Of a DNA stretch of 64,000 bases, positions 21,719-62,397 are shown one piece after another (within the stretch, counting starts at the first letter, position 1; every line of letters begins with the position of its first letter). The stretch is from an uncultured Gemmatimonadota bacterium. GTDB taxonomy: Bacteria > GCA-2686955. Below the pieces are notes generated by a model. It was not told the DNA's origin, searched no databases, and saw only the letters and a program-made list of their open reading frames with translations. The stretch spans positions 1 to 64,000 of the forward strand of contig CAZBBK010000015.1 in assembly GCA_964490075.1 (NCBI GenBank), written 5' to 3'. The position numbers were made by a program, and so were the translations under genes.

Positions 21719-21839
21719 CCGCCTCCGGCACACTTCTGGTTATAAGAGAGATGTGCCGGTCCTCCGGCGACGCCCGCACCAGCGCGGCGTCCACCCGCGC
21801 CCGGCCACCGGCCAGGCGCTCTAACCTCTGGCGCCCCAA

Positions 21840-24602
21840 ATGCTACAACCGATCTTCGCCCTCAGCGCCGCGCCCCTCGCGGCGGCGCTCACCCATGTAC
21901 CCCCCCCGCTCGATCTGAACCAGCAGGTACTCTTCTCGGACCAGAGGGTACACGAGATCGAGATCGAGATCCCCTATCCCGACTGGTTCGGCGAGCTCGA
22001 GTCCCACCGCATCGACGAGAGCTACGTCGCCGGCATCGTGCGCATCGACGGCGCCGAGATCGACTCGGTCGGCATCCGCTTCAAGGGCAACTCGTCCTAC
22101 TACCACCCGGGCATCAAGAAGCCCTTCCGCATCAAGTACGACGAGTTCCGCCCCGATCAGACCCTCGACGGTCTGCCGAGCCTGGTCCTCAACAACAACT
22201 TCAAGGACCCCACCCACCTGCGCGAGACGATCGCCTACTCGCTGATGCGGGATATCGGCGGCCAGCGCGCGGCGCGTACCGGATTCGCCAACCTGCGCAT
22301 CAACGGCGAGCTGCTCGGCTTCTACACCGTGGGCGAAACCGTCAACAAGACCTTCATCCAGAGCCACGTCGGCGCCGGCGAGGACGGCAATCTCTGGAAG
22401 GGCGATCCACACGGCCATCTGAACTGGAAAGGCGACGATCCCGCGGCCTACTACAGCGACTACACCCTGGAGACCAACGAGTCGCTCAACGACTGGTCGG
22501 GGCTGGTCGACTTCATCGATGCCCTGAACAACACTCCGCCCGAAGAGCTTCCCGACTCGCTGGCCGAAAGGCTCGACGTCGACCGTTGGCTGCGCCACCA
22601 CGCGGTCAATGTCGCCACCGTCAACCTCGACGCCTACGAAGGCACCGGCCACAACTACTACGTCTATCAGAAGGACTCCGACGGGCGTTTCGTGCACATC
22701 CCCTGGGATCTCAACGAAGCGTTTGGCGTCTTCAGTCTCAACCTGCCGCCCTGGGAGCTGAAATGGATGTCGCCCTTGTGGCGCAACCATGAAGCGCGAC
22801 CACTGGTCGATCGGCTGCTCGATGTCGAGCTCTACCAAGAGATGTACTTGCGCCGCATGCGCGATCTTCTGGCGACATATTTCGAGCGCGACCGAGTGGC
22901 GGATCGGATCGACGAGCTGGCCGATCTGGTGCGCCCTCACGTCTACGCCGATCCCAACAAGATGTACTCCAACGACGATTTCGAGGACAACCTGGAGTAC
23001 GACATCGGCTTCGGCCCCGGACTGGTGTTCGGCCTCAAGTCGTTCCTGGCGGCCCGGCACGGCGCGATCCAGCCGATCCTCGATGCCGAGTTGGGGACAC
23101 AATATCTGTTCATCAACGAGATCCTGGCCGACAACGAAACCACCGTGGCCGATGAGCTGGGGGACTACGACGATTACGTTGAGCTCTACAACGGAGCCGG
23201 CCAAACCGTGTCGCTGGAAGGCTTCGGCCTCAGCGACGATCACCGCGATCCCTTCCGCTGGACGCTGCCGGCGACTGCCTCGGTGGCGCCGGGGGAACGA
23301 TTGATGCTGTGGCTGGACGGCGAGCCCGAGCAGGGGGAGCTGCACGCCCCCTTCTCGCTCTCGGCCGCGGGCGAGGAGCTCTTCCTCTTCGATGCCGGCG
23401 GCGCCCTGGTCGACTTCATGGTCTTCGACGCGCAACAGACCGACATCGCGCATGCCCGCTTTTCCGACGCCAGCTCGTGGGTCGGCGCCCTGCCCCCTAC
23501 CCCCGACGCCGCCAACGCCCATGCGCCGGCGATTCTGTCGCTGATCGCGAGTCGCCCCTTCCCCTGGCCGGATCGAGATCTGAGCATCGAGGCCCAGATC
23601 GAGGAGCGACTGGTGCCTCTGGCCTTCGTCGACCTGATCTACGACACCGGCGGCGGTCCCCAGACGGTCGCCATGACCGAGAGCGGGGGAGTCTGGAGCG
23701 CACAGATTCCCGGGCAGCCGCTCGGTACCCTGATCGAGCTCTACGTGCGCGCCGAGGATCAGCAGGGCAACGTGACCCTGGACCCGGCGACGGCACCCAC
23801 GCGTGGCCACGACCTGCCGGTCTTCGTCGGCACCAGCCCCATTCGCATCAACGAATTCATGGCCGACAACGAGACCACCTATTCCGACGACGCGGGCGAG
23901 TTCGACGACTGGATCGAGTTGGTCAACCTGGCCGGGGTCGATCTCGACCTGAGCGGCTACGGCCTGTCCGACGACCTCGACGATCCCCGGCAGTGGACGC
24001 TCCCCGCGGGCACCATGATCGGCGCCGGAGAGCGGCTGATCGTCTGGGCCGACGACGACCCGGGCGATCTGCACGCTCCCTTCAAGCTGGGCAAGAGCGG
24101 CGAGGAGATCGTGCTCAGCGCCCCGGAGATCAGTGGCAAAGAGGTCGTCGATCATGTGGTCTTCGGCGCTCAGAGCACCGATCTCTCCGAGGCCCGCGGG
24201 CCCGACGGGCTGGGGGACTGGGCGCAGGCGGTAGCGCCGACGCCCGAGACGCGCAACGCCGGCAAAGGCTTCGCGGCGCTGCTGGCGGCGCAGCAGTCGC
24301 CGGTGCGGATCGGGGCTTCTGGCGGATCGTTCGAGGTGCAGCTCACGGTGCTCAACCGCGGCACGGCGAGCGCCTCCACCGAGGCCTGGACCGCCGCCAA
24401 GCTGCCGGGCGGCGGCGAGATCGAGCCGCTCGACGGCCCCTTGCCGCTCACTCTCGCGGGCGATGCCCTGGCCACCGACCGGCTTTCGGTCACCGTGCCC
24501 GGCGGAGCACCCGGCGGAAGGGGCCGCTACGAGCTGCGCGTCGGCGAGCTGGGCGGCGTGCTGGACTCGGCGGACGGTGTCGAGGTCATCAAGTCGCAGT
24601 AG
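21840..24602 (+). CDS. Secreted CotH-family kinase with two lamin-tail domains and a C-terminal Ig-like module
   Basis: VGIRFKGNSS, LNNNFKDPTHLRE, HNYYVY, IPWDLNEAFG (CotH); two INE..ADN...DWIELVN lamin-tail repeats; shared C-terminal module. Confidence 0.88.
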   Translation: MLQPIFALSAAPLAAALTHVPPPLDLNQQVLFSDQRVHEIEIEIPYPDWFGELESHRIDESYVAGIVRIDGAEIDSVGIRFKGNSSYYHPGIKKPFRIKYDEFRPDQTLDGLPSLVLNNNFKDPTHLRETIAYSLMRDIGGQRAARTGFANLRINGELLGFYTVGETVNKTFIQSHVGAGEDGNLWKGDPHGHLNWKGDDPAAYYSDYTLETNESLNDWSGLVDFIDALNNTPPEELPDSLAERLDVDRWLRHHAVNVATVNLDAYEGTGHNYYVYQKDSDGRFVHIPWDLNEAFGVFSLNLPPWELKWMSPLWRNHEARPLVDRLLDVELYQEMYLRRMRDLLATYFERDRVADRIDELADLVRPHVYADPNKMYSNDDFEDNLEYDIGFGPGLVFGLKSFLAARHGAIQPILDAELGTQYLFINEILADNETTVADELGDYDDYVELYNGAGQTVSLEGFGLSDDHRDPFRWTLPATASVAPGERLMLWLDGEPEQGELHAPFSLSAAGEELFLFDAGGALVDFMVFDAQQTDIAHARFSDASSWVGALPPTPDAANAHAPAILSLIASRPFPWPDRDLSIEAQIEERLVPLAFVDLIYDTGGGPQTVAMTESGGVWSAQIPGQPLGTLIELYVRAEDQQGNVTLDPATAPTRGHDLPVFVGTSPIRINEFMADNETTYSDDAGEFDDWIELVNLAGVDLDLSGYGLSDDLDDPRQWTLPAGTMIGAGERLIVWADDDPGDLHAPFKLGKSGEEIVLSAPEISGKEVVDHVVFGAQSTDLSEARGPDGLGDWAQAVAPTPETRNAGKGFAALLAAQQSPVRIGASGGSFEVQLTVLNRGTASASTEAWTAAKLPGGGEIEPLDGPLPLTLAGDALATDRLSVTVPGGAPGGRGRYELRVGELGGVLDSADGVEVIKSQ

Positions 24603-35345: not shown

Positions 35346-37178
35346 TCAGCTCTCCCCGTCCACCACGTCGAGGTATTGCCACCAAGAGGAGTAGACCTCT
35401 TCCGGCCTGAAGTTGCGCAGCCGGCGTTGCACGAGGTAGTTGCGGGTTCTCGCCATCGATCCGATCATCGGCGCCTGATCGATCACGATCTCGCGCAGGC
35501 GCGTGTAGATCTGTGTCCTTTCGGGCGAAGGCAGCATCGTCTTGGCAGCCTCGAAGAGGGAATCGTACTCGGCATCGGCGAAGTTGAAGTTGTTGCTTCC
35601 AGGAGATGCGTTCGGTCCGTAGAAGAGCTGCAGGAAGTTCTCCGCGTCGGGGTAATCGGCGCCCCAGGCCAGGCCGAAGAACTGCGCCTTGCGCTTCTTC
35701 AGCTTGTCGTTGAGCTCGGGAAAGGAGTTGAAGCTGGCTTCGAGGCGGATGCCGATCTCGGCCAGCTGGCGCTTGAGCATCTGCGCCTGCTCCTGGCTGT
35801 TGCTGCCGCGCGAGGTCTCGTAGCGCAAGGGCGGCAGGCTCTCCACCATACCGGCGCTGCCCTCGGGCAGCATCGGCACCGGGTGCCCGGCGCGCGCCAT
35901 CAGCGCGCGGGCGGCATCGAGATCGCGCGCGCGATGGCCCGGCACGAAGCCCTCGAGCCCGGGCGGGATCGGGCCCTGGTAAAGAGTGTTGCGACCGTTG
36001 TAGAAGGCGTGGTTGCGGGCCTCGAGATCGACCGCGTAGCCGATCGCCCGGCGCACCAGCTTCATTTCCGGCGGCTGCCCCCAAACCGGGTCTTCCATGT
36101 TGAATCCCCAGTAGATCAGGTCGAGCAGCGGCAGCGGATGAGCCCGAATCCCCTTCTCCTCGAGCTCGGGGCGCGCGGTCGCGTCCTTGCGAAAGACGGT
36201 CGGCCAGTACTCCGAGGGCACCTGGGTGAGATCGAGATCGCCGCGCCGGAACTTCAGCCACATCGGCTGGTCCTGCTCGAAGATCTCGAGCACGATGCGG
36301 TCGATGAAGGGCAGGTCACGGCCGGCGTAGTCGCCCATCCCCAGGGCCAGCTCGGTGGAGTCCAGGTCGGTCGGGAAGCTCTCCCCGTGCCAGGTCGGAT
36401 TGCGCTCCAGGATCAGCCAGCTGCCGCGGCGGAACTCCCGAACGCGGTAGGGTCCGGTTCCGACCGGCCGGTTGCCGAACTCCAGATCGTAGTGCTCGAC
36501 CGCCTCGCGCGGCACGATCGAGGCGTAGGGCATCGCCAGTACGTAGAGCAGCTGCGGAAAGGGCTGCGTCAAGACGATCTCGAAGCGCCGGTCGTCGATC
36601 TTCCGCAGGCCCTCGATCGGCCGGTCGTAGTCGAAGCGGAATCGGTCCAGGCGCCCCTCGGCGGCATGCCGCGCCCGCCGCTCGGCCTCCTCCGCCTTGT
36701 AGCGGTCGAGCCCCTCGATTCTCCCCTCGAAGAGCCAGTAGCCGGTGGGGCCCCAATGCGCATCGCACATGCGCCGGATGCTGTAGAAGACATCATCGGT
36801 GGTGAGCTCGGGGCCGCGGCCGCCGGTCGACCGGAAGGCGGGATCGTCCTGGAAACGCACGCCGGGGCGCAGCTCGAAGGAATAGACCCGGCCGTCGGCC
36901 GACACTTCGGGAAGCGCAATCGCCAACGCCGGCCTGAGCTGGAAGGGGCGTCGCGGGTAGCGGTAGTCGACCAGGCGCTCGAAGATCGGGCTCGAGGCCA
37001 GGCTGGAATACTGGGTGCCGCCGCGCACCGGATCGAGGTTGCCGATTCGCGCCCGCAAAGGGACGCGCAGCACCTTGCGCTCGGGCTCCGGCGCTGCGTT
37101 TCCATCGCACGCGCTGAGCAGTCCCGAGAGCAGGACGCCGAGGACGATCAGCGGCAGGATGCTGCGCTGGTGTTGCAT
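35346..37178 (-). CDS. ABC transporter substrate-binding lipoprotein, family 5
   Basis: Lipobox LLSAC; LDP, LRPGVRFQDD, PVGTGPY, WGADYPDAENFL. Confidence 0.92.
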   Translation of the reverse strand: MQHQRSILPLIVLGVLLSGLLSACDGNAAPEPERKVLRVPLRARIGNLDPVRGGTQYSSLASSPIFERLVDYRYPRRPFQLRPALAIALPEVSADGRVYSFELRPGVRFQDDPAFRSTGGRGPELTTDDVFYSIRRMCDAHWGPTGYWLFEGRIEGLDRYKAEEAERRARHAAEGRLDRFRFDYDRPIEGLRKIDDRRFEIVLTQPFPQLLYVLAMPYASIVPREAVEHYDLEFGNRPVGTGPYRVREFRRGSWLILERNPTWHGESFPTDLDSTELALGMGDYAGRDLPFIDRIVLEIFEQDQPMWLKFRRGDLDLTQVPSEYWPTVFRKDATARPELEEKGIRAHPLPLLDLIYWGFNMEDPVWGQPPEMKLVRRAIGYAVDLEARNHAFYNGRNTLYQGPIPPGLEGFVPGHRARDLDAARALMARAGHPVPMLPEGSAGMVESLPPLRYETSRGSNSQEQAQMLKRQLAEIGIRLEASFNSFPELNDKLKKRKAQFFGLAWGADYPDAENFLQLFYGPNASPGSNNFNFADAEYDSLFEAAKTMLPSPERTQIYTRLREIVIDQAPMIGSMARTRNYLVQRRLRNFRPEEVYSSWWQYLDVVDGES

Positions 37179-37254
37179 CGGTAGTGGGGCAGAGTTCCTG
37201 ACGGACGTTGGCGCACCGATTGTATGCTCCCGCGGTCGTTCACCGGAGCCATCC

Positions 37255-38568
37255 ATGGCCAAGGACCCCGAAGAGATCCCGACCTCGAGCCTCGGCCGCT
37301 TGTTGCGCCTGGGGGGAGTGGTGTCGAGCGTCGGCGCCAGCAGTGCGCTGGAGCGCGTCGTCTCGGCCTTCCTCCCTCCCGAGACCCGCGCCCGGCGGCG
37401 CGCGGAAATCTGGGCGCGCAATGGCGAGAAGCTGGCCGCTGCGCTGGGCCGGCTGAAGGGCGGGCCGATGAAGATCGGTCAGATGCTCTCCTTGCAGGAC
37501 GAACTTCTGCCGCCGGAGCTCTCGCACTTCCTGCGCCTGTTGCAGAAGGACGCCCCCCCGGTGCCCTTCGAACGCCTCAAGCGGGTGGTACGAGACGATT
37601 TCCGCCCTTACCGCGAAGTCTTCGCCGAGATCGAGCCCGAGCCCTTGGCGTCGGCGTCGATCGGCCAGGTGCACCGCGGCGCGACCGTCGATGGGCGGGC
37701 GGTGGCGATCAAGATCCAGTACCCCGGGATTCGCCGGATGATCCGCGCCGACCTGAAGAACCTGAAGGGACTTTTCGAGGTCTTGGGGACGATCTACTTC
37801 CGGATAGACATCGAGCCGATCTGGCGCGAGCTCGAGACCCGCTTGCTCGAAGAGCTGGATTACGAGACCGAGCTAGCCAACCAGCAGCTCTTCCGGAGCA
37901 TCTACCAGGACCACCGCGGGATCGCCGTGCCGGAGCCGATCCCCGAGGCGTGCAGCGGGCGCGTACTGACCACCGCTCTGGAGCGGGGGATGTCGATGGA
38001 CGAGATCCTCACCGAGCGGGTCGACCCCGAGGAGCGGGATCAATGGGGCGAGCTGCTCTTCGGCGAGCTGCTGGCGCAGATCTTCGAGCACCGCATCGTT
38101 CATAGCGATCCCAACGCCGCCAACTTCGCCTTCCTGCCGGAAGGCCGCGTGGTGGTGTACGATTTCGGCAGCGTCAAGCGGGTGCCCGACGAGCTTCTAC
38201 ACGGCTACCGAGCGATCGTGCGCGCCGTCCTGGACCGACGCTGGTCCGATCTGCCGGAGCTGATCGCCGCGCTCGGCATCGCCCACCCCGACGGCCGGCC
38301 GGTCGATCCCAAGCTGGTGGAGCCGTATTTCCGCCTCTTCGAGCCGCTGCTCTCGGGGCAGCACCGTCTGGCCGGCGAAGGCGAGCCGCTGCTCGAGGAG
38401 ATGATGCGCAGGGGCCGCCTGATGGCCGGCGAGAGCCGCGACCTCAGCTTTCCGCCCGATGCGGTGTTCATCCACCGCGCGGCGGCCGGGATGTTCGGCA
38501 ATCTCTGTCGGATGCGGGCCAAGGTCGATTGGGGAGATCTGCTCGATCGCGCCACCGGCGATCGCTGA
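37255..38568 (+). CDS. ABC1/AarF/UbiB family atypical kinase
   Basis: LKGGPMKIGQMLS (KxGQ), ASASIGQVH, VAIKIQYPG, EELDY..E, HSDPNAANF, YDFG. Confidence 0.92.
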   Translation: MAKDPEEIPTSSLGRLLRLGGVVSSVGASSALERVVSAFLPPETRARRRAEIWARNGEKLAAALGRLKGGPMKIGQMLSLQDELLPPELSHFLRLLQKDAPPVPFERLKRVVRDDFRPYREVFAEIEPEPLASASIGQVHRGATVDGRAVAIKIQYPGIRRMIRADLKNLKGLFEVLGTIYFRIDIEPIWRELETRLLEELDYETELANQQLFRSIYQDHRGIAVPEPIPEACSGRVLTTALERGMSMDEILTERVDPEERDQWGELLFGELLAQIFEHRIVHSDPNAANFAFLPEGRVVVYDFGSVKRVPDELLHGYRAIVRAVLDRRWSDLPELIAALGIAHPDGRPVDPKLVEPYFRLFEPLLSGQHRLAGEGEPLLEEMMRRGRLMAGESRDLSFPPDAVFIHRAAAGMFGNLCRMRAKVDWGDLLDRATGDR

Positions 38569-38574
38569 TGGTGG

Positions 38575-39387
38575 CTACACTTCGATCTGGGTGCCCAGTG
38601 TCTCGCCCAGCAGCGCACGCTCCACATTGCGCGCACCCATGGCGTCGAAAATCGTCACCCGGATTCCGCCCAGACAGGCACGGATCTCCTGCAGCTTGCG
38701 CGCCATCCCTCCCGTCACGTCGACCGTGGTGGCACCCTGCACCGACTGCATCACCGCGGCGAAGCTCTCGGCGCTGATGCGTTCGATCCGACGGGCCCGC
38801 GGATCGATCTTCGGGTCGCCCGCGAAGACGCCATCGACGTCGGTGCCCATCAGCACCCGCGCGGCGCCCAGCGCGGGCGCCAGGTGGGCTACGATGGCAT
38901 CACCCGATACCACGCTGGCCTGCAACGCATCGTCCAACACCATGTCGCCGTACAGAACCGGCACGATCTCCGCGTCGAGCTCCAGAAGCCCGCGCACGAA
39001 CGCTGTTTCGAAAGAGACGATTTTGCGGTCGCGCTGTCGAATGCAGGCGCTGGGTTGGATCGGGAACCCCAGCAGGCCCTCTGCGCGGAGCTCGCACATC
39101 ACGGCGTAGTTGAGATCCTCCATGGAGTTGTGCGTGCGCACGAAGCCCTCGATCCCGCGCGGCACGCCGAGCCCGCCGGCGATCGAGTAGTCGCTCACCA
39201 TGGTGTGGCCGAAGGGCCCCGCGCCGTGCACCAGAACCAGGCGCAGCGCATGGCGCTCACGCGCGGCAGCGATCTCGCCCGCAATGCGCCGCACTTCGTC
39301 GCGCCGCACCTCGAAGCGGTTGGACTCCTTTTCGGTGATGACGCTGCCACCGATCTTCAGCACCACGGTCTCGATCCGCGCCATCAT
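38575..39387 (-). CDS. ipk: Isopentenyl phosphate kinase (amino-acid-kinase family)
   Basis: LKIGGSVITEK, LVHGAGPFGH (IPK signature His), PVLYGDMV, VSGDAI, TDVDGVF, DVTGGMARK; TAATG coupling to upstream gene. Confidence 0.88.
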   Translation of the reverse strand: MMARIETVVLKIGGSVITEKESNRFEVRRDEVRRIAGEIAAARERHALRLVLVHGAGPFGHTMVSDYSIAGGLGVPRGIEGFVRTHNSMEDLNYAVMCELRAEGLLGFPIQPSACIRQRDRKIVSFETAFVRGLLELDAEIVPVLYGDMVLDDALQASVVSGDAIVAHLAPALGAARVLMGTDVDGVFAGDPKIDPRARRIERISAESFAAVMQSVQGATTVDVTGGMARKLQEIRACLGGIRVTIFDAMGARNVERALLGETLGTQIEV

Positions 39388-39773
39388 TACGCCCTCTCTT
39401 CGATCTCGACCCGCGAGCCGCATACTCGCACCAGGTCGCCGCTCTCGATCTCTTCGATCTCGATCTGGTCGACGCAAGGGATCTCGGAGATGATCGCCCC
39501 CACCGCCACCACGGTCTCGCACTCCCGGTTGAGGATCGCCGCCGGGGCGACCCCGTTGCCGCGCAGCCGATAGAGAGTGTAAGAGCCCACCGTCGACCCC
39601 TTGCCGCGCGGAAACACCAGCACCTTGCCGGCGACACTTTGACCTTCCAGGGGATGGCCGGCCTCCAGCACCTGGCCGCTCTCCGGATCGACGCCACCGT
39701 AGAAACCGATCGGCTCGTGAGAGACCAGCGCTCGTCCCAGCGCCTCTCCTTCGTAGATCGTTCGCCCGCGCAC
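39387..39773 (-). CDS. Aconitase X swiveling small subunit (DUF126); putative phosphomevalonate dehydratase small subunit
   Basis: GRTIYEG...ALVS, GGVDPESG, HPLEGQSVAGKVLVFP.GKGSTVGSY, APAAI, VAVGAII. Confidence 0.9.
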   Translation of the reverse strand: MRGRTIYEGEALGRALVSHEPIGFYGGVDPESGQVLEAGHPLEGQSVAGKVLVFPRGKGSTVGSYTLYRLRGNGVAPAAILNRECETVVAVGAIISEIPCVDQIEIEEIESGDLVRVCGSRVEIEERA

Positions 39774-39776
39774 TGC

Positions 39777-40958
39777 CTACTCCTCCGTCGCCAGGCGGAT
39801 GCACTCCTCGAGCGATCGAAACACGCTCTTGAAGCGGTTCTTCGCTCGTCCGTAGTAGACGCCCTTCGCGGAGTTGGTGGCGAAGCTCTCGAAGCGCCCG
39901 GCCAGCGGTGCCACCACATGGCAAGTGTCGCAGGCGATCCGCGCCCCGGCAGCGCTCAGGATCGCGCTGATACCCGCGGCATCGGCCTCCTCCTTCACGC
40001 CTCGGGCGACCCCGAGCCAGAGCTCCTTCGTCACCGATGTGCCTTCCAGCAACTCGGCGATCCTGCGCAGCTCCTCCAGCGACAGATGCGGGCAGCCCAG
40101 GAACACGAAATCTATGCTCCGAGCATCCGCGTCGTCGAGGGAACGGGCCGCGGCTTCCAGCGCGGCGGGAGCGATGGCCAGTCGCCGCCCGGGGCGCGCG
40201 AATCGTTGCTCGGCGCGCTCCGCCAGGTGAAAGATCGGCGCCCCGCCGTAGGTCGGAAGCGCGGCCGAGAGCGCCTTCAGCAGATCCCAGCGCTCGGTCG
40301 TCACCCCCTCGATCAGAGGCACGGCGTCGCCGATCGATTCGCCGATGAGCTTGCCCAGCGCGCCAAACTCCGTCGCCCTGCGCGGCTCGCTTTCCACCTG
40401 TACCAGAACACCCGGCGCGCGCGGCGCATCGAGGTGCAATCCGTAGGCGGGCGTTCGGCCGGTCAGCGCCGCGGCGATGCTACTGGGGCCCCCTTCTTTG
40501 TTGGTGCGCGCGCCCAGCACCGAGTTGGCGAAGGTGACCGCGGAGCTCTCTCCCCACGCCAGGTGGGCTCCGCGCTCTGGCACGTTGCCGATCAGATAGG
40601 GCGTGCAGGAGCAGGTCGTTTCGACCCCCATCGACGCGAAGAGCGCGACCACCTCGGTCTGCTTCTCGGCAAAGCTCTCGGGAATGCCGAGCTTCCGCCA
40701 GTCCCGCATGTCCATCCCGGCGGGATTCAGCGTGGTCGGCACCCGCACCCGTGCGTCGGCGGCCAGCGAGCGCACGAACTCCAGCCCGGCCTCGCCCAGA
40801 TTGTCGTAGGAAACGCCGGAGATCTGCACCGTCTCGACCGGGATCAGGCGCTCGGCGCCGTAGATTCGGCCCAGCGCGCAGAGGATCTCCATGCTCTTGC
40901 GCAGCGCGGCACCCTGCGCGCCCTCCAGCATCTCCCGTTCTTCCGCCCTCAGCCTCAT
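39777..40958 (-). CDS. Aconitase X catalytic large subunit (DUF521); putative phosphomevalonate dehydratase large subunit
   Basis: QISGVSYDNLG, TTLNPAGMD, SCTPY, AWGESSAV.FANSVLGARTN.EGG, GCPH, DTC, TNSAK. Confidence 0.9.
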   Translation of the reverse strand: MRLRAEEREMLEGAQGAALRKSMEILCALGRIYGAERLIPVETVQISGVSYDNLGEAGLEFVRSLAADARVRVPTTLNPAGMDMRDWRKLGIPESFAEKQTEVVALFASMGVETTCSCTPYLIGNVPERGAHLAWGESSAVTFANSVLGARTNKEGGPSSIAAALTGRTPAYGLHLDAPRAPGVLVQVESEPRRATEFGALGKLIGESIGDAVPLIEGVTTERWDLLKALSAALPTYGGAPIFHLAERAEQRFARPGRRLAIAPAALEAAARSLDDADARSIDFVFLGCPHLSLEELRRIAELLEGTSVTKELWLGVARGVKEEADAAGISAILSAAGARIACDTCHVVAPLAGRFESFATNSAKGVYYGRAKNRFKSVFRSLEECIRLATEE

Positions 40959-40965
40959 CGTCGCC

Positions 40966-42273
40966 TCAGTCCACGAACCGGCCGAGATCGACCCGTGGGA
41001 ATGACACCTTTTCGAACCTGTTGCGCGCCGCGCCGCTGGCCGGAGCCGTGAAATCGAAGCCGACCTTGGCGGTGCGCTTGCTGCCGGGTTCGGCGGAGGG
41101 ATCGAGGCTCGATCCGGGCTCGGTCGCCACCAGGTGCGCATCGGAGCTGAACTGGAAGCGGGTCGCGAACGCCCACTCGACGCTCGCCGGGTCGAGAATG
41201 TCGATATCGTGGTCGACCACGAAACAGTGTTTCAAGCTGCGGTGACCGGCGAAGGCCGCGTCGATCGCCCGGCGCGCGTCGTCGCCACGCGCCTTGCGGA
41301 TCTTGACGATGGCGTGCAGCCACGAGCAGCCGCCGGGACTGATGCTGACGTCGAGACAGTCCACCCCGGCCTCGATGACCTGGCGATAGATGGTCGGCTC
41401 GCGCGGCATTCCCATCAAGAGCTTGTGCTCCATCCCGCCCGGCAGCAGCGCCTGCCAGATCGGAGCGCGGCGCTGGGTGATGCGCTGCACCGTCATGACC
41501 GGCTCGTCGCGAACCCGGTCCGGAGTCTCGGTAAGATCGACGAAGGGACCTTCCGGACAGCGGTCCTCCAGCGCCACCCTTCCCTCCAGTACCACTTCGC
41601 AGTCGGCGGGAATCCACAGCTCCGAGGTGGTGGCACGAACCACCTCCAGGGGCTCCAAAGTGTTCGCGATCTCGATTTCGTCGCTGCCAGGCGCGACGCT
41701 GGTAGCGGCGGCCAGCAGCACGCCCGGCGCGTTGCCGACGCAGATCGCGACGTCGATCTCTCGTCGGTCGCGCAGCAGTCGGTCGAAGTCTCTCCCGCGC
41801 ACGACACGCAACGCAAACCGCTCCTTGTCGAGCTGCATCGCGCGGTGGAAGTCGAGGTTCTGTCCGAGCTCGGGATGGTTGGCGACACAGACGCCCGAGG
41901 TGATATAGCGGCCGCCGTCGGTTTCGCAGTGCAAGAGAATCGGCAACCGATCCAGGTCGACGCCGTCGAGCACGACTTCCTGGCACGGCGCTCTATTCAC
42001 CCGAAGCGGCGCGCTCGGGTTGTCGATGGCGCGGGCCATCCAGCGCACGATGTCGACCACGTCGATGCCGAAGTGGGCGGCGATCCGCCGCTTCGACTGG
42101 AGCAGGTTGCCGACCATGCTGTAGTCGTAGCCGGACAGGTCGAGGAGCCGGACCGGGTCCTCCTCGAACGCCTTCAAAAGGCCCGCGACCTCCAGTTTCG
42201 GGCTGGCCGGCCGGCGGATGGTGCGCAGCTCGCCGGCGTCTTCGAGCTCTTCGAGAAACGACCTCAGCGACAC
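40966..42273 (-). CDS. UbiD-family prFMN-dependent decarboxylase; putative anhydromevalonate phosphate decarboxylase
   Basis: LPILLH...DGGRYITSG, FHR, EVVLEG, EGPFVDLT, EHKLLMGMPREP, GGCSWLHA, VVDHDIDI, WAFATRFQ, SSLDPS, KVGFDFT. Confidence 0.9.
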   Translation of the reverse strand: MSLRSFLEELEDAGELRTIRRPASPKLEVAGLLKAFEEDPVRLLDLSGYDYSMVGNLLQSKRRIAAHFGIDVVDIVRWMARAIDNPSAPLRVNRAPCQEVVLDGVDLDRLPILLHCETDGGRYITSGVCVANHPELGQNLDFHRAMQLDKERFALRVVRGRDFDRLLRDRREIDVAICVGNAPGVLLAAATSVAPGSDEIEIANTLEPLEVVRATTSELWIPADCEVVLEGRVALEDRCPEGPFVDLTETPDRVRDEPVMTVQRITQRRAPIWQALLPGGMEHKLLMGMPREPTIYRQVIEAGVDCLDVSISPGGCSWLHAIVKIRKARGDDARRAIDAAFAGHRSLKHCFVVDHDIDILDPASVEWAFATRFQFSSDAHLVATEPGSSLDPSAEPGSKRTAKVGFDFTAPASGAARNRFEKVSFPRVDLGRFVD

Positions 42274-42282
42274 GTTTTGTCC

Positions 42283-42861
42283 TTACTCGCCCCAGCGGCG
42301 CATCTGCGAGTTGTCGATGCCCAGGAGATCGAGCACCTTGCAGATCATGAAGTCGTTCAGATCGGCGATGCTCTCGGGACGATGATAGAAGCCGGGGCTC
42401 AAAGGGGCGACGATGCCGCCGGCGCTGCTGATGGCGCGCAGGTTGTCCAGGCAGGGCAGGCTCAAGGGGGTTTCGCGAATGCAGACCACCAACTTGCGCC
42501 GGGTCTTGAGCATGTTGTCGGCGGCGCGCGCGATCAGGGTTCCCGCCACGCCGTTGGCGATTTCGGCAACGGTCTTGACCGAGGCGGGAATGACCACCAT
42601 GCCATCGACCAGAAAGCTGGAGCTCGATACACACGCGCCCAGATCGCCGTTGTCATGGCGAAAGTCGGCGTGGCGCGCCAGCTCTTCGGGGTCGAGATCG
42701 GTTTCGGCGCGCAGCACGCGTCCGGCCCAAGGGCTGGCGATCAGGTGGGTCTCCACATCGCAAGCCGCGAGCGCGCGCAGCAGCTCGACGCCGTAGTGCA
42801 CGCCCGATGCGCCGCACAGGCCGACCACGATGCGCCGCCGTCGCGTCTTGGAGGTTGACAT
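42283..42861 (-). CDS. ubiX: Flavin prenyltransferase
   Basis: VGLCGASG, SSSF, PASVKT, LIARAAD..LK.RR.LV..RETPL, PGFYHRP. Confidence 0.93.
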   Translation of the reverse strand: MSTSKTRRRRIVVGLCGASGVHYGVELLRALAACDVETHLIASPWAGRVLRAETDLDPEELARHADFRHDNGDLGACVSSSSFLVDGMVVIPASVKTVAEIANGVAGTLIARAADNMLKTRRKLVVCIRETPLSLPCLDNLRAISSAGGIVAPLSPGFYHRPESIADLNDFMICKVLDLLGIDNSQMRRWGE

Positions 42862-43143
42862 GGAGGGGATCCTGGTGATTCGAAGTGCCGGGGTATGGGG
42901 TGCGCTCCAGGAGTGCCAGTCTTCAGACTAGCGCAGGCACGCCGATGCCGCACGCTCGGCGCCCTGTCCGAATTGTGGGGCGGGCGCCGGCGAGCGTCCA
43001 GATCCCCGCGCCCCCCCGCTGGTGGCCGGACCGATTCCCGACTACTCTGCCGGGGGAGCTCCGGTCGTCTTGCCGGCGCCGCTCCCGGTGCGAGGCTGAC
43101 CCGCGCGGCTCGAGATCTGACCCGCGAACCACCAGGAAATCAG

Positions 43144-43554
43144 TTGGAAAACACGGCGTGCGTGGCGGTCGAAGAGCAGGGGCGCTGGCTCCTGGTGCGG
43201 CGCGGCAATCCGCCCTATCGCGGCTGGTGGTGCTTTCCCGGCGGGCACGCAGAGGAGGACGAGAGCGGCGCCCAGACGGCTGCCCGTGAGGCGCGCGAGG
43301 AGGTGGGCGGCGTGGCGCTCGCGGGCGCCGAGCCGATTCTCGTGTTCGAGCACGAGTGGCCGGCCGACAGCCGCACTCCGGCGCCGCACCGGCATCGCTG
43401 CCAGGCCTTTCGCGGGCGGGTGGACGGCGGAATCGTGGCCGGCGACGACGCCGCCGAGGCGCGCTGGTTCGAGGCGTGCGAGCTGAGTGCCCTCGACCTG
43501 ACGAGCTACACGCGCACCGTTGCCGAGCACCTGGGTCTGGTGCCGGGTTTGTGA
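43144..43554 (+). CDS. Nudix hydrolase (start uncertain)
   Basis: Complete Nudix box G-HAEED-E-SGAQTAA-RE-AR-EE-VG; LLVRRGNPPYRGWWCFPGG; AGDDAAEARWF; TTG 43144 follows AGGA. Confidence 0.85.
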   Translation: MENTACVAVEEQGRWLLVRRGNPPYRGWWCFPGGHAEEDESGAQTAAREAREEVGGVALAGAEPILVFEHEWPADSRTPAPHRHRCQAFRGRVDGGIVAGDDAAEARWFEACELSALDLTSYTRTVAEHLGLVPGL

Positions 43555-44087
43555 GCCCGACCGCCGCGCTGCCCACGAGGATGATCGATCGCCTCGCCGC
43601 CCTGTGGGGGCTCGGCGGCATCGCGCTGCTGCTGGGCAACGCGATCCATCGACTGTCGATCGTCGTCGTCGATGCGGCCTCCTACGATCTCGATGGGCGC
43701 CACTGGCTGGTCTGCGCCGCCCTCACCGCCTTCATGGCGCATGTGAAGGGCTACCTGGTCTTCCAGAAGCGGCTCGCGCCCCGGGTCGCGGCGCGGGCAC
43801 GGGCCCTGGGCGAGATTCGACGCCCGCTCGCCGCCTTCCTGGCGCCTCTCTACTGCATGGGCTACTTCCACACCACCGCGCGGCGCCAGCGCACGACGAT
43901 CGCCATGACCTGCGGCGTCGTGCTGCTGATCGTGCTGGTGCGCTCCCTCGCGCAGCCCTGGCGCGGCATCGTCGACCTGGGCGTGGTCGTGGCCCTCGGC
44001 TGGGGCCTGGTCGCGATCCTCTATCAAGGCATGAAGGCGTTGATGGCCAAGGACTTTCCCCATTCCCCAGAGCTCCCCACGCAGTAG
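43551..44087 (+). CDS. Conserved-looking membrane protein, about 4 TM helices
   Basis: GTGA overlap with Nudix stop; hydrophobic segments; KGY..FQKRLAPRVAARA, LAPLYCMGYFH, QPWRGIVDLGVV. Confidence 0.7.
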   Translation: MSPTAALPTRMIDRLAALWGLGGIALLLGNAIHRLSIVVVDAASYDLDGRHWLVCAALTAFMAHVKGYLVFQKRLAPRVAARARALGEIRRPLAAFLAPLYCMGYFHTTARRQRTTIAMTCGVVLLIVLVRSLAQPWRGIVDLGVVVALGWGLVAILYQGMKALMAKDFPHSPELPTQ

Positions 44088-57233: not shown

Positions 57234-60200
57234 CTACGCGCCGTTGTCGGCCAGGGGGAAGACCAGGGTGAAAGAGGTGCCCTGGCCCGGCTCGCTCTCG
57301 ACCTGCACCCGCCCGCCGTGTGATTCGACCAGGGTGCGCACGATCGAGAGCCCCAGGCCGGTGCCTCGATCCTCCTCCTTGGTGGTGTAGAAGGCCGAGA
57401 AGACCCGGTCGCGGTTCTCGGCGGAAATCCCACAACCGCTGTCGACGACCTGGATCCGGTAGCCACCCTCGCCCTCGGCCAGGCCGGCGCGGACGACCAG
57501 ACGCTTCGTCTCGCGATCCTCCATCGCGTCGAGGGCGTTGGTCAGAAGATTGACCAGGATCTGCTGGAGCTGCGATTCGTCGGCCAAAATCGTGACCTGC
57601 GCGGCGTCGATCTCGACGCTCAGATCGACGTAGAGCAGACGATTGCGAACCAGGGCCAGGGCCTCGTGAATCGGCCCCTCGGGGTCGATCGACCGCGTCT
57701 GTCCGGCGGAACGACGGGCGTAGCGGTTGATCGATCGAACCAGCTTCTCCATGCGCCGCGCCTGGCGCTCGATCTCCTGCAGCGCCGCGCCGAGCTTCTC
57801 GTCCTCGGCGGGATCGAGCAGCTCCAGGCGACCGATCATGACCGTGAGCGGTTGCCGCAGCTCGTGAGCGATGCCGGCCGCCATCTGCCCCATGGCCGCC
57901 ATCTTGTCGGCCTGAAAGAGCTCCTCGTGGGCCTCGTTCAGGCGACAGAACGCCGCCTCGAGCTTCTGCTTGGAGCGCGCCAGCGCGCGGCTGCCCACCA
58001 GCAGCTCGTCGTAGAGGCGTGCCTTGTCGAGGGAGGTCGCGGCGATCGAGGCCAGGGACTCGAGCAGCGCCAGATCTTCGGGGCCGAAGGTCTGCGCAGG
58101 CGCGCAGCCGCTGTCGACGTAGATGGCGCCGATGACGCGGGTTTCGACCCGCAGCGGCACGCACATGATCGACTTCAGCTCCAGGCGCCGCATGCTGGGC
58201 GTGGTCTGGTCGGGATGCGACGCGGCCACGTCGCGAACGATCGAGGGCTGCCCTCGATCGAGCGCCTCCTCGAGCGCGGAGCGCGAAAGATCGAAGGGAG
58301 GGCCTTCCAGGGTGCGGCCGCTGCGGTCGCGGGCCAGCTCGAAGCGAGCCTCGGCCTCGGAATCGACCGTGACCAGGAAGCCCCGCTCGGCCTCGGTGAC
58401 GACAAAGATGCCGTCCATCACCGTGTTCAGCACATCGGGCGCCGCCACCGGCGCGGTGATGCCGCGGGCGGCCTCGATCAGAGCCTGCATCTTGCGGAGC
58501 CTGGCCGCCGAGAGCCCCGAGCCGTTGCCCAGGCGCCGGCGATCCTCCCAGAGGGCCGCGATCGCCGCGCGCATCCCCAGGCTGCGATAGGCCTCTTCGG
58601 CCTCGCGGATCGCGTCGAGGCCCGCCTCCTGGTCCCCCTGCAGCGCCAGGGCGACACCGAGGCGATGGCGAATCCGCGCACCGAGCAGCTTCCCTCCCGC
58701 CGACCCCAGGAGCTTGAGACCACGCCGGTAGGCCCGCACCGCCGCCTCCGGGCGCTCCTGCCGCTCGTGGTGGCGCCCCACCAGGCGGCAGAGCTGGGCG
58801 AGCTCCACGCGATCGCCGGCGCGCCGGGCCAGGCGCAGCGCTTCGCGTCCCTGCTCCCATGCATCGGCCACCGCTCCGAGCTCGAGCTGGGCCTCGGCGA
58901 GCCGCCGCCGAGCTTCGCAGGCTTCTTCCACGAGCTCGTGACGGACACCCAGCTCCCACGCCTCCTGGTAGCGCAGCAGCGCGTCGGCCGCCGCGCCCCG
59001 CGCCAGCGCACAGTCGCCGAGGTTGCCGACCGCCACCGCCAAGCCCTGCTGCGAAGCGGCCTGGCGGGAGAGCTCGACCGCGCGACCGAGCTCGGCCTCG
59101 GCCTCGGCCAGGTCGCCTCGGCCGGTGTGGATCAGGGCCGAGTTCACCAGGAAATGGGTGACGTGGGTCGGCTCGTCGAGGTGCTCGGCGAGGGCCATCC
59201 CCTTGCGATTGGAGTGCAGGGCCTGGTCCCACTGACCGGCCTCGAAGAGCGCGTAGGCCAGGTTCCCCAGACAGCGCATGATCGCCGCGAGATTGCCCCT
59301 TTCCTCGGTCAGAGTGAGCGCCTCTCGGAAATGGCGCGCCATCTGGCCGTGCTCGCCGCGCACGTTGGCGAGGATGCCGCAGAGGGTCTCGCAGGCCGCC
59401 GCCCGGGCGTGGTCGCCGCGGCGCCGAAAGTGCTCCAGGGCGGTTCCGTTGTGGCGCAGCGCAGCTTCCGCGTCGCCGGCCAGGCGCAGCACCTGGGCGA
59501 GGGTGGCGGCCAGCCGCGCGGCCTCGTCGTCGGGGTCGGGGGCGCCGGCCGCCGCCGCCAGCGCCGGGCCGGTGAGGATCTCGCGCGCCTGGTCCAGAGC
59601 GCGGCGCTTCATCAGCTGCAGGGCGTGGAGATGCAGCAGCTGGGCCCGCTCCCTGGCGTGGAGGGGGGTGTCGTGCTTGGCCGGTGTCTCGCCCCCCAGC
59701 GCCTCGAGCCCGCTGCGCAGCGCATCGAGGCAAGGTTCGGAGACCCCCTTGGCGTTCAGGGCGTCGGCCTGCCAGCGCCAGGCCCGGGCCGCCATCAGGC
59801 GGCGTTCGGCGCCGGCCGGCAGGTCGGGGGCCAGCGCCCCGAGCTGCTGCGCGCGCTCCCGAACGGTGTCGGGCGCACCGGCGCCGTCGGCGATCTCGAT
59901 CAGCTCGCAGAGGGTCGCCGCGAGCTCGCCGGGTGGGCGCGCCGTGCGGCGCTCGAGATCGAGCAGGTCGCCGAGCAGCGACCCGGCCGCGGCGCTCGCG
60001 GCGCCGGCCCGCAGTGTCGCCACGGCGCGGCCGACCCATTCGCGAGCCTCGGCGGGCGCTTCGGCGCTGATCGTCAGGCGGGCCACGCGCAGCTCCAGCT
60101 CGGCGCGCTGCGCAGCCGGGCAGCGCAGGGCCCGGGCGGCCAGGGCAGCGGCCGCGGCCAGCGCCCGCGCGCGCAGCTCGGTCGGGTCGGCCGCGTCGAG

Positions 60201-62195: not shown

Positions 62196-62397
62196 GCACT
62201 CTCCGCGATCGGTTTCGGAACCAGCCCGCAGCAGGAACCGAGCCCTAGAACGGGAGACGACCCGCCATGGCCCACACCCGGGATGCGAATGCCCGGAGAG
62301 GCATCTCGAAGGCCGGCGGCCCTCGCCATCCAGGGGCGGCCGCGCCGGGGGGCGGGGATGCGGGATCGCAGCGCGCCGGACTGCTGGACGGGTCGGG

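Follow-up and report, generated by a model that had tools for sequence, protein, structure and literature searches.

An operon predicted to encode the lower half of the archaeal mevalonate pathway in a deep-branching bacterial lineage outside the Chloroflexota

Does a compact group of five bacterial genes encode an archaeal route to IPP, and if so, where did it come from? The question is raised by a 64,000-nucleotide stretch of DNA (hereafter, the window) in which genes of the UbiX, UbiD, aconitase-X (AcnX), and isopentenyl phosphate kinase (IPK) families lie side by side. In Aeropyrum pernix and Methanosarcina mazei, according to the available portions of PMC10040528 and PMC12547664, the archaeal mevalonate pathway comprises MVK, phosphomevalonate dehydratase (PMDh), AMPD with UbiX, and IPK. 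An earlier note on the window had proposed that this bacterium makes IPP by such an archaeal-type route, and the protein families, residues, trees, and genome complement analyzed here support that proposal. Our findings make it very likely that the five genes constitute a single operon encoding the lower half of the archaeal mevalonate pathway (the trans-anhydromevalonate phosphate type), for which Hayakawa et al. (2018) is reportedly the source study.

All five genes are located on the minus strand. The first gene of the operon is ubiX, encoding a flavin prenyltransferase (42,283–42,861; 192 aa), followed by a UbiD-family decarboxylase gene with a GTG start (40,966–42,273; 435 aa), the AcnX large subunit, a predicted PMDh-L of AcnX type IIb (39,777–40,958; 393 aa), the AcnX small or swivel subunit, a predicted PMDh-S with a GTG start (39,387–39,773; 128 aa), and IPK (38,575–39,387; 270 aa). 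In operon order, the intergenic gaps are 9, 7, and 3 nt, and the AcnX small-subunit stop codon and the IPK start codon share a 1-nt overlap (TAATG). The coordinates and spacing are therefore as the earlier note had given them (five co-oriented genes, gaps of 9 bp or less, one overlap); the motifs it quoted (HGAGPFGH, CTPY, GCPH, DTC, GSTVGS, and EGPFVD) are all present in the translations, and its family names for the five proteins were matched by Pfam and NCBIfam profile searches. The description of the operon as compositionally native also stands, with both measures fitting the genome: at 67.1%, its GC content lies close to the genome mean (68.4%, sd 2.5, 4.3-kb windows), and in tetranucleotide usage it is no outlier, 68% of 300 random windows being at least as distant from the genome.

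The two AcnX proteins are predicted to form a phosphomevalonate dehydratase. The large subunit matched PF04412 (456 bits) and the small subunit PF01989 (112.9 bits), and the two-subunit architecture is present as separate ORFs 3 nt apart. Among PDB matches of the large subunit, PMDh of Thermococcus kodakarensis (TkPMDh, 7cnr) scored 316 bits versus 187 bits for the C3LHyp dehydratase, and the best PDB match of the small subunit was 7cnr_B (133.5 bits); against NF003046, the small subunit reached 161 bits, just below the equivalog cut-off of 163. A hydroxyproline dehydratase identity for the large subunit was considered and rejected, given a score of 276 bits against an NF051439 cut-off of 700 and the absence of a site-C cysteine.

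Cysteines at sites A, 1, and B, with none at site C, were taken as the ligand pattern of a PMDh, following the definitions in the available text of PMC10040528 and PMC8184944, where Tk Cys110, Cys283, and Cys342 correspond to A. pernix Cys122, Cys297, and Cys356. The three candidate Fe-S cysteines highlighted in the earlier note (Cys118, Cys289, and Cys346) all align with these cluster ligands (3/3), and the site-C position is occupied by the valine of DTCHV. For the Tk enzyme, the accessible part of PMC8184944 lists MVA5P contacts at G48, V49, S50, N53, N79, E129, S130, S131, K361, and Y365 of the large subunit and at S62 and T63 of the small subunit. In HMMER alignments to the Tk proteins, the contacts are identical at 10/10 and 2/2 positions, respectively, those of the large subunit falling on G48, V49, S50, N53, the Asn of TTLNP, E137, S138, S139, and the Lys and Tyr of NSAKGVYY. 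The GKGSTVGS loop of the small subunit, with the catalytic Ser-Thr-Val, is likewise identical to that of the Thermococcus enzyme. For both subunits, the top-scoring structural relative is this type IIb AcnX (7CNR, 7CNS; PMC8184944, as far as the available text goes), from which the host proteins differ by Ser in place of Tk Ala47 in the large subunit, Tyr in place of Tk Leu27 in the small subunit, and a 9-residue insertion after TTLNPAG in the large subunit.

The trees point in the same direction. In a 36-row AcnX large-subunit tree, the PMDh clade was split from four other bacterial AcnX with support of 95/86, on long outgroup branches, and a 76-row tree that included six outgroup rows recovered the same split with 91% support, its outgroup branches also being long. 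The outgroup is formed by the six AcnX genes present in 396 other bacteria, which are 28–36% identical to the query and of which none (0/6) has a UbiD gene within 1.5 kb. Hydroxyproline dehydratases share PF04412, PF01989, and the fold with the host AcnX, whereas the host protein lacks the Cys-x-Cys of site C, has the site-1 cysteine (GCPH) instead, and lies in a mevalonate rather than a hydroxyproline gene context. Between the two groupings that the earlier note had set against each other, the PDB scores, NF051439, and the trees thus place the host protein with the archaeal MVA5P dehydratases and not with the hydroxyproline dehydratases.

UbiX matched PF02441 (136.7 bits) and exceeded the cut-off of NF004685 (207.9 bits; cut-off 188), and tblastn located the operon copy as the only homologue in the genome. 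Its product is predicted by homology to make prenylated FMN, the cofactor of the UbiD-type decarboxylase. It is 59–61% identical to proteins of the archaeal contigs L012, L015, and L067, but just 34–44% identical to Chloroflexota UbiX.

The UbiD-family protein, encoded 9 nt downstream of ubiX, contains the three domains PF20695, PF01977, and PF20696 and scored 329.8 bits against TIGR00148 (cut-off 244.85). Two other identities were rejected: that of an aromatic-acid or quinone decarboxylase (VdcC, 192 bits against a cut-off of 650; UbiD model, 141 against 788) and that of an MqnL-type enzyme (menaquinone decarboxylase model, 142 bits against 496). The PDB search returned no AMPD structure among its entries, and the nearest solved UbiD is the furandicarboxylate decarboxylase HmfF (6h6v, 236 bits). 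Named relatives are archaea and Anaerolineae (53–62% identity), and within the motif EGPF(V/I)DLTE, the residues E, G, P, F, and D are invariant across 29 aligned relatives. The AcnX large-subunit gene follows UbiD on the same contig piece in 66 of the 80 loci examined. In the tree, the query adjoins the Aenigmatarchaeota contig L012, and the Chloroflexota form a separate clade (support 100); the clade as a whole, whose archaeal and Chloroflexota proteins are 52–62% identical to the query and share the motif, is encoded next to both AcnX subunits and in many cases also next to MVK, IPK, and HMGR. Because of this clade, the synteny, and the motif, we assign the protein to the putative AMPDs; for UbiD too, the grouping questioned in the earlier note falls on the side of these archaeal and Chloroflexota genes, the aromatic-acid decarboxylase models having failed.

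The kinase exceeded the cut-off of the archaeal equivalog NF040647 (IPPK_Arch; 216.5 bits, cut-off 120). Its best PDB match is the Methanothermobacter IPK 3ll9 (159 bits), in which VHGAGSFGH aligns with VHGAGPFGH of the query; we take the conserved His of the HGxGxFGH motif to be an IPK hallmark. In the IPK tree, the query groups with the IPK of the archaeal contigs L067, L088, and L069.

The remaining steps are encoded outside the window. Profile searches of the host genome (95.31% complete, 0.53% contamination) found HMGS, HMGR, MVK, and IDI, the genes that the earlier note had proposed to look for. IDI2 (371 bits, cut-off 281), MVK (217 bits, cut-off 163), and HMGR (324 bits; class II by TIGR00532, 359 bits) are clustered on contig C86, and an archaeal-type HMGS (526 bits, cut-off 353), followed by thiolase and DUF35 genes, is on contig C26. 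As for the competing routes named in the same note, profile searches for dxr, ispG, ispH, and the MVD family gave zero matches in this 95.3%-complete genome, the MEP search covering these three genes. PMK (TIGR01220) had no match above the cut-off, a weak negative because the model passed its cut-off in none of the 14 control genomes.

From these assignments, we infer the following activities and flux. The thiolase/HMGS/DUF35 cluster and the class II HMGR would supply the upper half of the pathway, and MVK would form mevalonate 5-phosphate. The two-subunit [4Fe-4S] AcnX would then dehydrate mevalonate 5-phosphate to trans-anhydromevalonate 5-phosphate, which the UbiD-family enzyme, using UbiX-supplied prenylated FMN, would decarboxylate to isopentenyl phosphate. 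IPK would convert isopentenyl phosphate to IPP, and the type 2 isomerase would provide DMAPP. As judged from gene content, the archaeal-type mevalonate pathway is probably the sole IPP route in the host and its five-species lineage.

The classification of the host, a point raised in the earlier note, was addressed with RpoB, which branches deep among Gemmatimonadota, Eisenbacteria, Latescibacteria, and Zixibacteria (62–65% identity). By this marker, the host is placed outside the Chloroflexota, in a small deep-branching bacterial lineage. It is a marine, high-GC (68%) bacterium whose genome contains bacterial genes for fatty-acid synthesis as well as two heme-copper oxidase genes. Across the five species genomes of this phylum-level group, the AMPD-like UbiD, AcnX, and HMGR are each present in 5/5, and dxr, ispH, ispG, and MVD are each found in 0/5; four of the five genomes are 83–95% complete, and MEP absence is to be read as "not found." The four other genomes carry the cassette at 61–80% or 30–57% identity, with host-like GC in each. 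G002, G003, and G004 share the operon order (61–80% identity), and in G001, a single cluster reads IDI2-HMGR-MVK-UbiX-UbiD-AcnXL-AcnXS-IPK.

Comparison with known systems indicates what is shared and what is distinctive. The pathway of A. pernix and M. mazei has the same two-subunit type IIb AcnX with corresponding Fe-S ligands, UbiD-family decarboxylase, UbiX, and IPK, as well as MVK, HMGR, archaeal HMGS/thiolase/DUF35, and IDI2. Unlike these archaea, the host is a high-GC marine bacterium whose predicted lower-pathway genes form one tight operon. A 2024 AEM paper by Kanno et al. is said to deal with the archaeal mevalonate pathway in Chloroflexota. An example is Candidatus Promineifilum breve, as cited in the available portions of PMC13001223 and PMC12547664. 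These are bacteria in which, as is predicted for the host, PMDh, AMPD, and IPK replace PMK and MVD; unlike the host, they belong to a different phylum and probably represent a separate acquisition. They form their own clade in every tree that includes them (support of 99 for AcnX large, 100 for UbiD, and 99 for UbiX), and their loci read UbiD-AcnXL-AcnXS, with UbiX after or absent and no adjacent IPK, in contrast to the host order UbiX-UbiD-AcnXL-AcnXS-IPK.

The host order recurs in DPANN-type contigs, namely L012 (labeled Aenigmatarchaeota), L015, L067, L088, and L069 (labeled Iainarchaeum), as (MVK-)UbiX-UbiD-AcnXL-AcnXS(-IPK). These contigs also give the highest identities outside the lineage (58–64% for L012, 42–48% for IPK, and the UbiX values above). 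They differ from the host in GC content (32–54%), and a gene for an archaeal presenilin-type peptidase is present on L012. Archaeal clusters usually include MVK, HMGR, HMGS, and IDI2, which in the host genome sit on other contigs.

The closest relatives outside the lineage are archaeal for all five proteins. In the 36-row AcnX large-subunit tree, the clade of family f1 has support of 100/100 and its union with L012 100/98; L012 is sister to the bacterial clade in both the AcnX large-subunit and UbiD trees, and the UbiD, IPK, and UbiX trees agree with that of AcnX. A single clade of f1 and Chloroflexota, a grouping chosen for the AU test once the first trees were known, was rejected (p = 0.0001). 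The G001 copies lie on long branches, and a single origin within the lineage was not rejected (AU p = 0.12). Since the trees either lack a root or take it from very long outgroups, we infer the direction of transfer from the wide archaeal distribution of the genes, and its timing from their composition: a transfer long ago is consistent with genes that now have host composition. The most likely source of the cassette, judging by the trees and gene order, is a DPANN/Aenigmatarchaeota-like archaeon in which the genes stood in the same order, and the transfer was probably independent of the Chloroflexota acquisition and long-established.

Could the genes serve other chemistry? AcnX, UbiD, and UbiX might act on another substrate, such as hydroxyproline or, in some catabolic or secondary-metabolite route, an aromatic or unsaturated acid, with IPP made otherwise. 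In the available text of PMC8184944, AcnX types I and IIa are hydroxyproline dehydratases and no function is known for the other type II subclasses of bacteria, and both HmfF as the best solved UbiD match and the NF051439 hit of the AcnX large subunit fit this reading. It nevertheless appears highly improbable: the NF051439, VdcC, and UbiD cut-offs lie far above the scores obtained, the cluster ligands and all listed MVA5P contacts are PMDh-type, and an equivalog-passing IPK is translationally coupled to the AcnX genes. Moreover, the G001 cassette lies directly behind IDI2-HMGR-MVK, the genome searches for dxr, ispG, ispH, and MVD revealed no second route to IPP, and the AcnX of other bacteria are distant outgroup sequences without a nearby UbiD.

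Two further readings concern the assemblies themselves. The pathway could be real but accessory, with MEP genes hidden in unassembled parts of drafts that comprise 136 to about 900 contigs, are 83–95% complete, and were searched for three MEP genes. We consider this very improbable, given that dxr, ispG, and ispH had no match at E ≤ 0.001 in 15/15 gene-genome pairs, whereas the dxr model matched 34 of 36 bacteria of other phyla and all three models matched 9/9 MEP-using control genomes; independent chance loss from five assemblies is itself unlikely. The contig could also be an archaeal or chimeric piece misbinned into a bacterial genome, as the archaeal affinity of all five proteins might suggest; a bacterial-labeled match elsewhere, L035, looks like such a binning error. 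For the host contig, an origin of this kind is exceedingly improbable. The operon sits inside a 93.7-kb contig, surrounded by genes typical of bacteria (FabH, a family-5 solute-binding protein (SBP_bac_5) and permease, CotH, FKBP, and subtilases), so that the contig, whose origin the earlier note had left to be checked, is bacterial by gene content and native by composition, unlike the archaeal relatives with their 32–54% GC. Four other lineage genomes carry the same cassette at host-like GC, and the contamination estimate is low. An archaeal-type mevalonate operon resident in a bacterial genome is the reading we retain.

With this operon, a known pathway gains a new bacterial host lineage. 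The sole bacterial exception named in the available text of PMC13001223 and PMC10040528 is the Chloroflexota, and a second, unrelated bacterial lineage provides a data point for the debate on how isoprenoid pathways move between domains. We give about even chances to a broader scenario, in which a whole phylum-level lineage swapped MEP for the complete archaeal mevalonate pathway, acquired as a ready-made DPANN-type cassette independently of the Chloroflexota. A more daring and less well-supported idea is that the GGGPS-family gene of the lineage may draw on this isoprenoid supply for ether-type lipids. According to the accessible portions of PMC12547664, the archaeal pathway costs two ATP per IPP instead of three, and its dehydratase is oxygen-sensitive in E. 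coli; PMDh versions from a marine bacterium with heme-copper oxidase genes are candidates for better behavior in air. If the broader scenario is true, domain-level swaps of an essential pathway would have happened at least twice, since this swap would be separate from that in Chloroflexota; an oxygen-sensitive Fe-S dehydratase would lie on the sole IPP route of a bacterium equipped for aerobic respiration, and the lineage would be a natural place to look for a mesophilic PMDh, possibly one that tolerates oxygen better, for use in the ATP-saving engineered pathway.

The five co-oriented open reading frames that the earlier note had described at 38575-42861 were recovered on the minus strand, where both Pfam and NCBIfam assign them to the named families and every motif quoted from the sequence is found in the translations. 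They comprise ubiX (42283-42861), a UbiD-family gene (40966-42273), the genes for the large and small AcnX subunits (39777-40958 and 39387-39773) and an amino-acid-kinase-family gene (38575-39387), the product of which passes the archaeal isopentenyl phosphate kinase (IPK) equivalog model (216.5 bits; cut-off 120). The gaps from ubiX to AcnX small measure 9, 7 and 3 nt, and AcnX small meets IPK in a 1-nt TAATG overlap; this close spacing and the stop/start overlap suggest a single transcript with translational coupling. A scan of 38000-43600, uninformative for such organisms, returned no sigma-70 promoter or intrinsic terminator. A sigma-54-like -24/-12 element with GG/GC spacing, TGGCACTCCTGGAGC, is located at 42904-42918 on the minus strand, 43 nt 5' of the ubiX ATG; because the TGGCAC-N7-GC pattern occurs at chance frequency in the window (2 observed against 3.8 expected, with no enrichment), this candidate may mean nothing. 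Four DNA runs, all from a single study with the label marine metagenome, contain the operon, and the sequencing-run search listed no RNA run that contains it.

Two genes flank the operon. A NUDIX hydrolase gene (42895-43554, plus strand) points away from ubiX, its divergent neighbor, and on the other side a gene for an atypical kinase of ABC1/UbiB type (37015-38568, plus strand) converges on IPK, the two stop codons lying 7 nt apart. A NUDIX gene is also found near the cassette in the archaeal contig L012. A functional link of either neighbor to the operon was rejected because neither adjoins it in three other genomes of the lineage (G002, G003 and G004).

AcnX proteins include both phosphomevalonate dehydratases (PMDh) and hydroxyproline dehydratases, and the evidence favors the former, as the earlier note had proposed. 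Among solved structures, the large subunit matched the type IIb AcnX of Thermococcus kodakarensis (7cnr) at 316 bits and the small subunit matched 7cnr_B at 133.5 bits. We compared the alignments with the residue lists in PMC8184944 and PMC10040528. According to these lists, Cys118, Cys289 and Cys346 of the query align with the T. kodakarensis cluster ligands Cys110, Cys283 and Cys342, and all 10 of the large-subunit residues that contact mevalonate 5-phosphate (listed in PMC8184944) are identical; in the small subunit, the Ser-Thr-Val catalytic loop is identical too. The Cys-x-Cys site that the same papers give as the mark of hydroxyproline dehydratases lacks its second cysteine in the query, and the hydroxyproline dehydratase model NF051439 scored 276 bits on the large subunit, below its cut-off of 700.

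A comparable distinction applies to the UbiD protein, which the earlier note had set apart from aromatic-acid decarboxylases. Only the general family model of NCBIfam passed, and those for VdcC, UbiD proper and menaquinone decarboxylase all failed. Among named proteins, its closest relatives (53-62% identity) come from Aenigmatarchaeota, Bathyarchaeota, Aigarchaeota, Asgard groups and Anaerolineae, and in an alignment of 29 of them the E, G, P, F and D of the EGPF[VI]D motif are invariant. By its clade, motif and gene neighborhood it is a putative anhydromevalonate phosphate decarboxylase (AMPD). A PDB search yielded no AMPD structure, the closest solved relative being the furandicarboxylate decarboxylase 6h6v. 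The source genome, G000, carries a single copy of UbiX. It also encodes a second, distant UbiD paralogue on another contig (C66:7952-8896, plus strand; 28% identity over 327 residues, in a 670-codon open frame), which is possibly a quinone-pathway decarboxylase sharing that UbiX.

The upstream enzymes, which the earlier note had not seen in the window, are present elsewhere in the genome. Contig C86 carries adjacent genes for a type 2 IPP isomerase (IDI2), mevalonate kinase (MVK) and an HMG-CoA reductase (HMGR) of class II (NCBIfam TIGR00532, 359 bits). Contig C26 encodes an archaeal-type HMG-CoA synthase (HMGS; 526 bits, cut-off 353); behind it lie genes for a thiolase and for an OB/zinc-ribbon protein of the DUF35 type, an order like that of the archaeal thiolase/HMGS complex. 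The archaeal HMGS model matched in G000, and the bacterial/eukaryotic model PF08540 had no match there. The absence of dxr, ispG, ispH and mvd, anticipated under the proposed route, also held for this 95.31% complete draft, since profile searches returned zero matches for Dxr, IspG, IspH and the diphosphomevalonate decarboxylase (MVD) family. The MEP search covered three of the seven genes, with each of the three models matching 9/9 MEP-using control genomes; the PMK model performed weakly in its controls.

Taken from the gene content, the predicted route would begin with condensation of acetyl-CoA by the thiolase/HMGS/DUF35 proteins, followed by reduction of the product to mevalonate by class II HMGR and phosphorylation to mevalonate 5-phosphate by MVK. 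The [4Fe-4S] AcnX heterodimer would then remove water to give trans-anhydromevalonate 5-phosphate, from which the UbiD enzyme, using prenylated FMN made by UbiX, would release CO2 to form isopentenyl phosphate. IPK would add the second phosphate to yield IPP, and IDI2 would equilibrate IPP with DMAPP. We infer every one of these catalytic steps from homology. Downstream of mevalonate, such a route is described in PMC12547664 as costing just two ATP per IPP.

The contig is not archaeal. The operon is surrounded by a bacterial gene set that includes FabH, subtilases, a CotH kinase and an FKBP isomerase, as well as a solute-binding protein of family 5 together with its permease. The window belongs to contig C15 of a 5.70-Mb draft in 136 contigs with 95.31% completeness and 0.53% contamination. 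The operon has a GC content of 67.1%; neither its GC nor its tetranucleotide composition departs from what is usual in the genome, which agrees with its earlier description as compositionally native. The CotH kinase domain lies in a 925-aa protein (21825-24599, plus strand) immediately 3' of FabH, where it is followed by lamin-tail (LTD) domains. Elsewhere in the window, a 1749-aa open reading frame (57237-62483, minus strand) combines a Ser/Thr protein kinase, an AAA_16 ATPase and TPR/MalT-like repeats with a GAF domain and a histidine kinase module of the HisKA-HATPase type. The genome has two genes for haem-copper oxidase subunit I. Its RpoB relatives comprise five at 83-88% identity, three at 67% and then a plateau at 62-65%, the named members of which are labelled Latescibacteria, Eisenbacteria, Zixibacteria, Gemmatimonadota and Handelsmanbacteria. 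This RpoB pattern suggests that the host is a separate deep branch near Gemmatimonadota. Its phylum-level group in the genome collection has five species genomes in total; four belong to a single family, and the fifth to another family within that class.

Across these five genomes, drafts that are 83-95% complete, AMPD-like UbiD, AcnX and HMGR were each found in 5/5, and Dxr, IspH, IspG and the MVD family in 0/5; the same search detected Dxr in 34 of 36 genomes of other bacterial phyla. Any form of AcnX was rare in other phyla (6/396 bacterial genomes); these six share only 28-36% identity with the query, and no UbiD gene lies within 1.5 kb of any of them. The order UbiX-UbiD-AcnXL-AcnXS-IPK is kept in the three family-mates at 61-80% identity, with different flanking genes. 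In the most distant genome, G001, the complete pathway from HMG-CoA onward is encoded by a single cluster of eight genes, IDI2-HMGR-MVK-UbiX-UbiD-AcnXL-AcnXS-IPK (L110:4683-12857, equivalent to about 35680-43860 of its contig C7, plus strand; local GC 55%). Its first gene is an IDI2-like FMN_dh, and its proteins are 30-57% identical to those of the window.

A scan that took a single genome for each prokaryotic species identified 598 stretches with UbiD relatives, of which the best 80 were analyzed. Within this set, the top match was a sister genome (69% identity), and the others were 23 Chloroflexota and archaea, namely Asgard groups, Aenigmatarchaeota, Bathyarchaeota, Nitrososphaeria and Iainarchaeum. 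Gene order distinguishes these groups: Asgard contigs mostly show HMGS-HMGR-UbiD-AcnXL-AcnXS-MVK-IPK-IDI2, and Chloroflexota show UbiD-AcnXL-AcnXS, in some followed by UbiX. The DPANN-type contigs L012, L015, L067, L069 and L088 present (MVK-)UbiX-UbiD-AcnXL-AcnXS(-IPK), as in the window, and among the best 80 of 598 they are also the most similar in UbiX (59-61% identity) and IPK (42-48%). One contig labelled 'Candidatus Nanopelagicaceae bacterium' (L035:1-13296; 34% GC) carries the Asgard-type HMGS-HMGR-UbiD-AcnXL-AcnXS-MVK-IPK-IDI2 order and nests within the Promethearchaeota clade, adjoining contig L074; most probably, archaeal sequence was here placed in the bin of a bacterial genome.

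The trees bear on whether the cassette shares an origin with that of Chloroflexota. In a quick AcnX-L tree of 76 rows, the four family-mates, G000 included, formed one clade (support 100), and the Aenigmatarchaeota contig L012 was its sister (98), with a separate Chloroflexota clade (99); a careful tree of 36 rows again recovered the family-mate clade (100/100) and its union with L012 (100/98). The UbiD tree showed the same neighbors and a Chloroflexota clade (100). Its rooting on the distant paralogue of G000 was discarded, as that branch, of length 10, drew the root to the query branch. The bacterial IPK genes group with L067, L088 and L069, and the UbiX genes with L067, L012, L015 and L069. 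An AU test rejected the lineage and Chloroflexota as one clade (delta lnL 66.7, p = 0.0001). Joining G001, whose genes sit on long branches, with the four family-mates was not rejected (p = 0.12), so the lineage may have acquired the cassette just once, at its base. The outgroups are very distant and the trees leave the direction of transfer unrooted; transfer from an archaeon to the bacterium is suggested by how widely the genes occur among archaea, and by L012 having a short branch where the stem of the bacterial clade is long. L012 itself has 41% GC and encodes a presenilin-type signal-peptide peptidase (PF06550), a mainly archaeal family.

A GGGPS-family gene outside the window (C49:10370-11164, equivalent to L118:1420-2214, plus strand), adjoining alaS, raises the question of archaeal ether lipids. 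It scored 247.1 bits with NF003198 (cut-off 247) and 158.6 with TIGR01768 (cut-off 113), and the PcrB/GGGPS family occurs in 4/5 lineage genomes. A glycerol-1-phosphate dehydrogenase was not found in G000, where the best match was AroB (33.6 bits, cut-off 413), and CarS exceeded its cut-off in only 1/5 genomes. On these two grounds the ether-lipid reading was rejected, surviving as a weak extension of the isoprenoid pathway.

The mevalonate pathway of the archaeal type is already known, and in bacteria PMC13001223 and PMC12547664 report it for Chloroflexota, citing experimental support in Ca. Promineifilum breve. Our literature search found no relevant report of the pathway in Gemmatimonadota. 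Nor is a bacterial host outside Chloroflexota named in the portions available of PMC13001223, PMC11052028, PMC12547664, PMC8237579, PMC10663253, PMC10040528, PMC8184944, PMC12279757 and PMC11192765; other papers could report one. The cassette appears to have been transferred independently, with a DPANN-like donor as its source. Its occurrence in all five species genomes adds interest as a lineage-wide trait, and the archaeal mevalonate route has probably replaced the MEP pathway in this lineage.
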